Shown here in pieces: positions 41,900-63,044 of a DNA stretch of 64,000 bases. How positions within the stretch are numbered: the first letter of the stretch is position 1; each line of letters starts with the position of its first letter. The stretch comes from Oscillospiraceae bacterium. GTDB taxonomy: Bacteria > Bacillota > Clostridia > Oscillospirales > Ruminococcaceae. The notes below the pieces were generated by a model, which saw only the letters and a list, made by a program, of their open reading frames with translations, did not search any database and had not been told where the DNA came from. The stretch lies in NCBI GenBank assembly GCA_021769725.1, contig JAETSI010000001.1, positions 103,340 through 167,339 of the forward strand, written 5' to 3'. The translations under genes were made by a program, and so were the position numbers.

Positions 41900-42045
41900 A
41901 AGAACTTCCTTTCATTGATGTAATGAGTTTTTCAGCTCTGTATCTTTTATTATAAGCTTTTATGTGATAATTTTATGATAGCCTATGGAAAAAATAAAAA
42001 AAATGCTAATGAAACGTTAAAAGCCTGTAGAAAAAGTGCGTTTTG

Positions 42046-42068
42046 ATTAATACCGGGATTCCTAAAGG
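42046..42068 (-). repeat. second copy of 22-nt motif CCTTT(A)GGAATCCCGGTATTAAT
   Basis: Reverse complement of 58874-58895 with one inserted base. Confidence 0.8.
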
Positions 42069-42142
42069 ACAATGTTCATCTGGCGGAGGGCCAGAGGCAG
42101 CGCCCTGCAAGAGAGGGGGCCTTAGTTTTTCGACAAGCTGAA

Positions 42143-42164
42143 AGCTCCCGTAAAACCGGGAGCT
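42143..42164 (-). terminator. hairpin after thioesterase gene (weak T-run)
   Basis: agctcccg/cgggagct stem. Confidence 0.45.
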
Positions 42165-42170
42165 TTTATA

Positions 42171-58368: not shown

Positions 58369-58530
58369 TTAGCATCCGCAGCCGCAGTCGTTGTTGTTGT
58401 TGCCGCATCCGCAGTTGTTATCGTTGCCGCATCCGCAGCCACAGCCGCCGTTTGCGAAGAGGATCACGAAGAGAATGATCACCAGGATAAGGCACCAGTT
58501 ATTTCCACAGCCAAAGTTTGAATTACACAT
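58369..58530 (-). CDS. 53-aa Cys/Gly/Asn-rich tiny membrane protein (below ORF-track cutoff)
   Basis: My own translation of the - strand: MCNSNFGCGNNWCLILVIILFVILFANGGCGCGCGNDNNCGCGNNNNDCGCGC; AAGGAG 9 nt upstream of the ATG; terminator follows. Confidence 0.6.
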   Translation of the reverse strand: MCNSNFGCGNNWCLILVIILFVILFANGGCGCGCGNDNNCGCGNNNNDCGCGC

Positions 58531-58673
58531 AAAGAACAACTCCTTAAAAGATGTATTTGAAGCGTTTTTGTTTTCGCTTCATAGTACATAGTATGCTATG
58601 GCGAAAAAAGTGTTACAAAAATTTTTCGTATCATTCGTTTCGACTGTTATCGCACTGCTGATGTGGCATAATA

Positions 58674-58702
58674 ATTATAGGTAACCTCTAAAACAATGTC
58701 AA
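58674..58702 (-). promoter_or_regulatory. consensus promoter TTGACA-17-TATAAT pointing toward Cys-rich micro-gene
   Basis: Read on the - strand: TTGACA 58702-58697, TATAAT 58679-58674; embedded in the left inverted arm. Confidence 0.6.
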
Positions 58703-59025
58703 CAACTTAGTGGGTACGCCGCTCCCAACGGTCGCCCGTACCCTCTGTCACTGTGTGACATCTCCCTACACCGTAGGGAGTCACCCACACACCTGCCAAA
58801 GGGGAGTACACGCCTAACTGGCGCCCGTCCCCTCTGTCACTTGGTGACATCTCCCCACACTGTGGGGAGTCACCCTTTGGAATCCCGGTATTAATTATTT
58901 TCAGTACCTCGTAAAGAGGTACTGGAAATAATCAGGGCAGAAGCCCATAGAATGAACACCCATTAAAAAGAGTGCAAGGGAACAAAATCTACTAAGCTGC
59001 TGACATTGTTTCAGAGGCTGCCTAT
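58677..59025. repeat. composite inverted-repeat / tandem-repeat element (35-nt arms, 2 x 89-nt units, 17-bp hairpin)
   Basis: Arms 58677-58711 and 58991-59025 are complementary at 30/35 positions plus one wobble; unit cores 58733-58786 and 58822-58875 are 48/54 identical. Confidence 0.85.
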
Positions 59026-62366: not shown

Positions 62367-63044
62367 TCATTCAGCCTCCTTGTAGTATTTTGTTTCGGTA
62401 AGATCGCAGATAACTCCTATTCTCTGGTCGGAAGCACCGAAAATATCTTTTGTGCAGGTATAAAGCGTTAGGCGTGTATCGTCAGTGGGACGAACGTATT
62501 TCTTTTCACTGTCTTTGAATGAGATGGTCTCACGGACTGTATAGACGAATTTGCCGTAGTTGGTTCTGACTGTGATAACATCTCCGGTTCTGAGTTTGTC
62601 GAGTTCGGCAAAGAACGTATTTACATGAGCGCTTACAACTGAATTTCCAGAATCTCCGAACACAGACGAGCTTGATGCCTGACAGGCTCCGATCTCAAAG
62701 AGGTCGATATCACTGCCCCAGTAGACGGGAACGGTAGTTTCAAAAGCGTCGCAACTAAGATCGGCGTAATGTTCACCAAATACCGGACGTATAATTTCAC
62801 CTTTTTCAGAGGAGTAGTTATTATCATCACTGTTGATTGCATTATCTTTTATTTTCAGACCGGATTCTGCATTTTCAGGGTCGATCTTTAACTCATCCAT
62901 AAACACCAGACCTTTGTATCTTTGCAGCTTGTCCGAAGGAACTATGAGAGCTATCATAATTAATCCCATGCACATAGCAAACATGATAAATGGTGTGGCA
63001 ATATGGATCAGAAGAGTTCCGTGATTTAATTTATTTTTTTTCAT
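62367..63044 (-). CDS. sortase-family transpeptidase
   Basis: N-terminal TM; His (VVSAHVN), Cys (LTLYTCT) and downstream Arg (QRIGV) in the canonical order; start at MKKNKLNHG. Confidence 0.8.
   Translation of the reverse strand: MKKNKLNHGTLLIHIATPFIMFAMCMGLIMIALIVPSDKLQRYKGLVFMDELKIDPENAESGLKIKDNAINSDDNNYSSEKGEIIRPVFGEHYADLSCDAFETTVPVYWGSDIDLFEIGACQASSSSVFGDSGNSVVSAHVNTFFAELDKLRTGDVITVRTNYGKFVYTVRETISFKDSEKKYVRPTDDTRLTLYTCTKDIFGASDQRIGVICDLTETKYYKEAE

Follow-up and report, generated by a model that had tools for sequence, protein, structure and literature searches.

The window analysed here, a stretch of 64,000 nucleotides from a genome of 3.8 Mb in 213 contigs, carries htrA (Trypsin_2 plus PDZ) and a clpC-like gene encoding a Clp ATPase. 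A 22-nt motif, CCTTTGGAATCCCGGTATTAAT, lies at 58874-58895 (+) with its 3' end 158 nt before the clpC ATG (59053). The same string with one extra A, CCTTTAGGAATCCCGGTATTAAT (23 nt), is found at 42068-42046 (-), its 3' end 147 nt before the htrA ATG (41899), and both copies have the same orientation relative to their own downstream gene. An earlier note on this DNA had given these positions, distances and orientations, and they held when both loci were re-read. The features at the htrA locus are the following.

42139 to 42168, no strand assigned: terminator hairpin of the upstream FlK-type thioesterase gene
42069 to 42125, minus strand: GC-rich stretch with short palindromes, absent from four relatives and without significant similarity to the repeat family described below
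42046 to 42068, minus strand: motif fragment of 23 nt with one extra A, read from the sequence and below detection by the family HMM
41936 to 42003, minus strand: htrA promoter block, downstream of the motif, aligning across five Ruminococcus species

The htrA motif lies between the thioesterase terminator and the conserved promoter block. It is upstream of the conserved promoter and therefore probably outside the htrA transcript. The promoter block (approximately 42003-41936) has the pattern TTTTTTC..G.TATCATA...TTATCACA......TTATAAT in common with the relatives G013, G053, G010 and G006, and contains a direct repeat, TATCATAaaatTATCACA (41980-41964), and a TATAAT (41954-41949). The block would be a better candidate for the real htrA operator, and its direct repeat, just upstream of the TATAAT, is perhaps a pair of response-regulator half-sites. 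Upstream of htrA the motif and the GC-rich stretch are missing in all four of these relatives.

The short palindromes near htrA, gcag/ctgc (42107-42096) and ctggc/gccag (42093-42079), are present as had been noted. The similar hairpin layout that was claimed for the two loci was not borne out: the 57 nt upstream of the htrA motif scored no better than shuffled sequence, either against unit 2 of the clpC side (z = -0.5; 369/500 shuffles score as well) or against the left half of a canonical repeat (z = 1.3; 66/500 shuffles as good). With no significant similarity, the idea that the htrA hairpins are homologous to clpC unit 2, or to P2 and P3 of canonical copies, was rejected. The 23-nt motif is the only demonstrably homologous part of the htrA locus, with homology possibly reaching about 15 nt beyond it when a variant on contig C143 of the same genome is taken as the guide. 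The stretch 42069-42125, which has a 17/17 match to the hairpin plus CTTTAGAATCCCG variant at C201:17605, is probably what is left, after decay, of this insertion or of a related one. Two variants in this genome, at C201:17605-17621 (CTTTAGAATCCCG) and C143:45437-45473 (CCCTTTGCAATCCCGGCATTAGT), have another P3 stem in the same 3' context, and no other copies are more closely related to the htrA fragment.

At the clpC locus the motif is embedded in a much longer element, with these features.

58664 to 58672, plus strand: extended -10 region TGgCATAAT of the putative clpC promoter, conserved with the closest relative, G013, and assigned from the consensus
58674 to 58702, minus strand: promoter-like site, TTGACA-17-TATAAT, by a 12/12 consensus match only
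58685 to 58694, plus strand: left outer flank cctctaaaac, 9/10 complementary to 59008-59017
58695 to 59007, plus strand: full composite copy of the repeat, 313 nt (AATGTCAACAAC...GCTGCTGACATT), matched by nhmmer with the family model, its termini read directly; absent in G013
58733 to 58786, plus strand: nested module X, copy 1 (cgcccgtaccctctgtcac...gtgac...ctccctacaccgtagggagtcaccc), extra relative to canonical copies
58822 to 58875, plus strand: nested module X, copy 2, in the 3' side of P3, read from the sequence; the unit 2 of the earlier description
58874 to 58895, plus strand: 22-nt motif, placed by sequence and by position in the consensus structure
58896 to 58931, plus strand: hairpin P4 (tattttcagtacctc gtaa agaggtactggaaata), helix 4 of the consensus structure
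59008 to 59017, plus strand: right outer flank gtttcagagg, complementary to 58685-58694

The element sits between the conserved -10 box and the ribosome-binding site. In G013, whose Clp ATPase is 87% identical in its first 200 residues, the divergent small Cys-rich ORF is also present, as is the promoter block as far as GTGGCATAATA, which is followed by about 55 nt to the ATG and no element. Pairwise alignment with G013 showed a clean insertion after the conserved -10 box, the genome studied here having the 313-nt element in the leader. Within 700 nt upstream of the Clp ATPase orthologue the element is missing in 27 of 29 congeners, and the other two have weak partial matches. The predicted ancestral clpC promoter is intact, and the element is predicted to lengthen and structure the leader. 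A putative effect of the element on clpC, through leader structure, mRNA stability or an outward -35 box, would be a by-product. The minus-strand site at 58674-58702 combines a -35 from the left terminus of the element with a pre-existing host TATAAT and faces the small Cys-rich ORF. The upstream block 58540-58672 (+), nearly identical in G013, holds CATAGTACATAGTATGCTATG and the TGgCATAAT and may contain the true control region of clpC, a gene that is not preceded by ctsR-mcsA-mcsB. The small ORF itself (58369-58530, minus strand, 53 aa from its ATG, MCNSNFGCGNNWCLILVIILFVILFANGGCGCGCGNDNNCGCGNNNNDCGCGC) encodes a single hydrophobic segment followed by a tail rich in Cys, Gly and Asn; it is conserved in G013, and NCBIfam gave no match.

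The motif is the best-conserved stretch of a modular, quasi-palindromic intergenic repeat of about 195 nt. Alignment of the motif neighbourhoods gave the unit consensus AATGTCAACAACTTAAGT-GGGGACGCTGTCCCC-ACA-CCCCTGCCAAAGGGG..CCCCTTTGGAAACCCATTATTAAT-(long hairpin)-ATTAGGGTGAATATCCATAGAGAAAATTTCC..TTGACA..AAGAAACAGA..ACTTAAGTTGTTGACATT, which is composed of four paired parts.

Terminal stem P1: inverted termini of roughly 19 nt, AATGTCAACAACTTAAGT ... ACTTAAGTTGTTGACATT
Hairpin P2: GGGGACnnnGTCCCC
Hairpin P3: CCAAAGGGG...CCCCTTTGG
Hairpin P4: long, variable in sequence with its pairing kept

The motif spans the 3' arm of P3 (CCTTTGG), a 3-nt junction (AAT) and the 5' base of P4 (CCCGGTATTAAT). 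Since the family weakly matches its own reverse complement in nhmmer searches, the right half, which is A/T-rich, mirrors the GC-rich left half in degenerate form. Both termini end in TTGACATT, each of them being an outward-facing -35-like hexamer (TTGACA). Modules are gained and lost: P4 is optional, zero to three nested X hairpin modules of about 52 nt each are present, and at least 11 left-half copies end in ...ATTAAT. Minimal palindromes of 45-50 nt that consist of the termini and the GGGGAC/GTCCCC hairpin only (P1 plus P2) occur in the same genome at C20:113427, C153:25856, C84:278 and C167:5253, and may represent the ancestral unit of the family.

A canonical copy folds with -88.5 kcal/mol (z = -9.7). 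The consensus structure was determined from an alignment of 33 full copies, of which 15 belong to this genome and 18 to other members of Ruminococcus. RNAalifold yielded the four helices P1-P4 with compensatory changes in 23 of 43 consensus pairs. Paired cells amounted to 96.7%, compared with 85.7% in shuffled controls (none of 500 as high as the real alignment) and 40-53% when the partners were slid. In P4, compensatory changes affect 13 of 17 pairs; this helix is hypervariable yet nearly all Watson-Crick, with very few G-U pairs or mismatches, and P1 likewise has few G-U pairs and is nearly all Watson-Crick. The left core of about 60 nt, motif included, is nearly invariant across species, and the termini and P4 vary far more. 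The P4 pattern fits selection at the RNA level and equally the correction of a quasi-palindrome at the DNA level by template switching, a process known from the literature on quasipalindrome mutagenesis. By eye, the consensus showed no T-run after a hairpin, no conserved promoter before the unit and no terminator after it, and a scan of the clpC copy gave no terminator-like site.

Across the whole genome, the exact 17-mer common to the two loci, GGAATCCCGGTATTAAT, has 19 matches at no more than two mismatches and the degenerate 22-mer has 53. A search by nhmmer, with an HMM made from canonical copies, retrieved 59 elements; the htrA copy is not among these, being too degenerate for the family HMM at E<=1e-3. 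With a simple ORF caller based on codon usage (3267 genes, 86% coding, leaving 14% of the genome non-coding), 58 of the 59 proved to be intergenic (p about 1e-48). Copies that run along the genes begin between -18 and +25 nt from the upstream stop codon, with some 30-50 nt left before the next start. Such stop-adjacent placement is expected if only those insertions survive that spare coding sequence and ribosome-binding sites.

In a survey of the genus the motif was present in 29 of 151 genomes and absent from the other 122, with a reversed-pattern control giving zero everywhere. The counts are patchy (129, 84, 61, 57, 39 in the genome studied here, 35 and 27; most genomes zero). Exact matches in species-representative genomes, at least 80 loci, were almost all in rumen or gut Ruminococcus MAGs (R. 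flavefaciens and relatives), and full-length copies were also found in several other Ruminococcus MAGs. Two viral contigs contained the motif, one of them with a full element. The X-module pattern, CCTCTGTCACnnnGTGACATCTCCC, was seen in 34 IMG/VR viral contigs (L152-L185) against these two for the main repeat and is far commoner in phage-like DNA. Rfam 15 gave no match in the window at the gathering threshold, and four loci with canonical copies searched at E<=1 gave one sub-threshold match, to BsrG (18.6 bits, the gathering score being 55). The literature searched contained no description of these repeat sequences or of any Ruminococcus repeat family, a 2024 survey of prokaryotic MITEs naming Ruminococcus in passing only. 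With no Rfam family and no description found in that literature, the repeat family appears to be undescribed.

The family has features of a mobile element, namely a short, non-coding, multicopy unit, inverted termini and presence/absence polymorphism. This polymorphism runs both ways: G013 lacks the copy that this genome has at clpC, and sites filled in G017 and G015 are empty here. Of 22 copies, 6 had direct repeats of 8-10 bp that resemble target-site duplications and scored above the 95th percentile for permuted flanks, one being a perfect 10-bp repeat (TAGCCCCAAA), and the rest had none. The exact target site is not definable from filled and empty pairs, their flanks being too diverged. 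Mutually complementary host flanks (at or below the 5th percentile of permuted flanks) were found in 8 of 22 full copies (p = 7e-6), and several copies whose pairing flanks are followed by T-runs look like insertions inside terminator hairpins. As a general rule, insertion into host hairpins was not upheld, since this enrichment in one genome compares with only 2 of 16 copies in other genomes, both in the same host hairpin of two species. In that hairpin the element lies in opposite orientations relative to co-linear flanks in two Ruminococcus species (L078:3716-3912, plus strand; L067:6280-6478, minus strand), which implies either a recurrent insertion hot spot or inversion in situ.

A mobilising partner was sought. 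In this genome all terminus matches lie in short elements, and the 80 loci elsewhere held no split left/right pairs, so that no autonomous IS with these termini was seen in either set. The genome has a single RAYT-like HUH/Y1 gene (C209:123258-123824) with an HVHMI motif, which overlaps the gyrB start and scores 63.8 bits against the NCBIfam model REP_Tyr_transpos (cut-off 80). This gene was rejected as the mobiliser: no copies flank it, its family has no match in the four genomes with the highest copy numbers (G164, G144, G125 and G059; 57-129 copies), and homologues are present in many genomes with zero copies. In the origin region dnaA-dnaN-recF-gyrB, repeat copies occur between dnaA and dnaN and after gyrB, and none beside the RAYT-like gene.

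The genes downstream of the 36 same-orientation copies are functionally unrelated and of an ordinary housekeeping kind. They encode ABC ATPases, a PBP transpeptidase, citrate synthase, flavin reductase, PheT, MiaB, Ppk (polyphosphate kinase), CarB, SpoIVA, a GH5 cellulase, Cmk (cytidylate kinase), ThiC, an arginase-family enzyme, NadA, IlvC, IlvB and an ECF ATPase. ClpC is the only proteostasis protein among the 36 (p = 0.52 against an assumed background rate of 2%). Neither a CtsR box (RGTCAAAnAnRGTCAAA) nor a CIRCE element (TTAGCACTC-N9-GAGTGCTAA) was detected near htrA or clpC; the only match to an operator consensus in the window, at 62504 with two mismatches, is at chance level.

These results bear on how htrA and clpC came to share the motif. 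It had been proposed in the earlier note that the motif is a shared cis-regulatory module, possibly the operator of a stress regulon, and a dispersed repeat family had been named beside it. Co-regulation of the two genes within a protein-quality-control regulon would be in keeping with the roles of HtrA and ClpC, both proteostasis proteins, and with the similar distance and orientation of the motif at the two gene starts. Nevertheless, we regard it as extremely unlikely. About 60 copies lie beside unrelated genes, neither gene has a CtsR or CIRCE site nearby, and the motif is placed awkwardly for an operator, some 90 nt upstream of the conserved -10 box and beyond the terminator of the previous gene at htrA, and buried in the 313-nt insertion downstream of the conserved promoter at clpC. 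The genome-wide search for enrichment near chaperone and protease genes and the comparison of orthologous upstream regions, both of which the note had suggested, were carried out. The regulon idea fails because the motif is scattered without functional bias and is missing from the orthologous regions of close relatives (27/29 for clpC, 4/4 for htrA), in which the promoters are conserved. A mere coincidence has next to no probability: a single exact 22-mer in a Dehalococcoidia MAG (L054), devoid of a surrounding element, is such a chance match, but the 17-mer occurs twice in the window against 0.01 expected (0/100 shuffles reach two), and the clpC copy sits within a full family member. The dispersed repeat is the proposal that stood, with its 59 copies, nearly all intergenic and next to functionally unrelated genes. 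The motif is shared by htrA and clpC through independent insertion and not through common control.

Very probably, then, the motif is the core of a Ruminococcus-specific, selfish, non-coding, quasi-palindromic intergenic repeat of a MITE, REP-BIME or BOX-like kind that spreads by insertion. The family would spread as DNA, because copies have been gained and lost at orthologous sites between species, and copies would survive only in intergenic DNA, often just past stop codons and sometimes within a hairpin of the host, for example a terminator. On this reading the clpC copy would be a species-specific insertion in the 5' leader, downstream of the ancestral promoter, and the htrA copy a decayed fragment caught between the upstream terminator and the ancestral htrA promoter. 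Against this reading speak the lack of an autonomous partner with the same termini in this genome and at the 80 loci elsewhere, the restriction of clear target-site duplications to a minority of copies, and a conservation that is lower at the termini than in the internal core, as would be unusual in a classical MITE.

Part of the evidence could indicate a selected RNA function rather than a purely selfish element, namely the covariation together with an orientation bias in gaps between tandem genes of this genome, where 29 copies run along the genes and 9 opposite (n=38, p = 0.0017). A bias of the replication strand was rejected here, the orientation not tracking local GC skew (27 copies with it, 32 against) and following gene direction even where the skew disagrees (12 vs 3). 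It is conceivable that copies of mobile origin now act in cis as RNA structures, as REP elements do, by protecting against 3' exonucleases, providing processing sites or damping translation termination at stops, the leader copy modulating clpC mRNA. Compensatory changes in all four helices, the skew-independent bias along genes, the starts close to upstream stop codons and the absence by eye of a hairpin with T-run from the consensus, which makes read-through of operons plausible, favour this. We consider it rather unlikely all the same. The orientation bias was discarded as evidence for RNA function when other Ruminococcus genomes failed to show it (28:22 overall, p = 0.48; 5:9 in one genome). 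In a host hairpin common to two species the element points in opposite directions, orthologous sites do not conserve their copies, and the nearly pure Watson-Crick pairing of P4 and P1 fits palindrome maintenance at the DNA level as well. A multicopy sRNA family, with every copy a gene transcribed on its own, is very unlikely; the fold is very stable and the left core of about 60 nt invariant across species, but the consensus has by eye no conserved promoter before the unit and no terminator after it, the copies fill short intercistronic gaps, many are shortened or carry inserted modules, and no Rfam family matches. A further but unlikely possibility is a hairpin-seeking mobile palindrome of an undescribed kind, in which a non-RAYT enzyme would recognise the invariant internal core of about 60 nt (P2, P3 and the junction, motif included) instead of the termini and insert the element in or beside host hairpins, for example terminator loops, with P1 rejoining the host stem and with P1 and P4 kept by template switching of DNA without selection on RNA. 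As a separate observation, on the 1.4-Mb contig C11 of G059 all 15 of the copies listed from 359 kb to 1.42 Mb are on the plus strand and most at 208-290 kb on the minus strand, a pattern that suggests a replichore or gene-strand bias, unlike the genome studied here.

The selfish repeat that is preferred here can be set beside several known systems. BOX elements of Streptococcus pneumoniae, built as boxA-(boxB)n-boxC, are modular and intergenic, have a stable predicted structure and occur in tens to hundreds of copies; to our knowledge they have no known transposase. Like them, the repeat is a non-coding intergenic sequence of a Firmicute with a variable number of internal hairpin modules (zero to three X, optional P4, minimal P1 plus P2 forms), a likeness of architecture only, placed next to BOX by description, the genus and the module sequences being different. 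It is set apart from BOX by its clear inverted termini, by a P4 that is hypervariable yet a perfect hairpin, and by the mirroring of its right half. REP elements, 20-40 nt long, affect mRNA stability and translation termination and are mobilised by the RAYT that they flank. With the REP, BIME and REPIN sequences of Enterobacteria and Pseudomonas the repeat has in common that its copies are multicopy extragenic imperfect palindromes after stop codons or between genes of operons, with mosaic composites and compensatory hairpins; it differs in size (about 195 nt) and in having no flanked or co-occurring RAYT. In Neisseria, Correia elements (CREE) duplicate a TA target; their TIRs are well conserved and carry outward -35-like boxes that can create hybrid promoters. 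Correia elements and MITEs such as RUP resemble the repeat in their length of 100-300 bp, terminal inverted repeats, intergenic position and patchy, lineage-specific copy number, and the Correia-like outward -35 is represented by TTGACA at both termini and by the 12/12 hybrid site at clpC. Unlike Correia elements, the repeat shows duplication-like repeats of 8-10 bp in about 6 of 22 copies, has termini that are more variable than its core, and has no parent IS among the sequences searched. On this comparison the repeat would behave like REP/BIME, BOX and Correia-type elements, and membership in any of these classes is not demonstrated.

For htrA and clpC the finding means that there is no shared stress operator, and for the genus that the repeat should be masked before regulon searches are made in Ruminococcus promoters. 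The repeat is abundant in some rumen and gut Ruminococcus genomes, and it breaks assemblies because many copies are at contig ends. It inserts in leaders and intercistronic gaps of housekeeping genes, and since it carries outward-facing -35 boxes it may, as a prediction, alter expression locally. The combination of an invariant core, a hypervariable perfect P4 and copies inside host hairpins is mildly unusual among bacterial repeats, and these features could help to identify a new mechanism of mobilisation.
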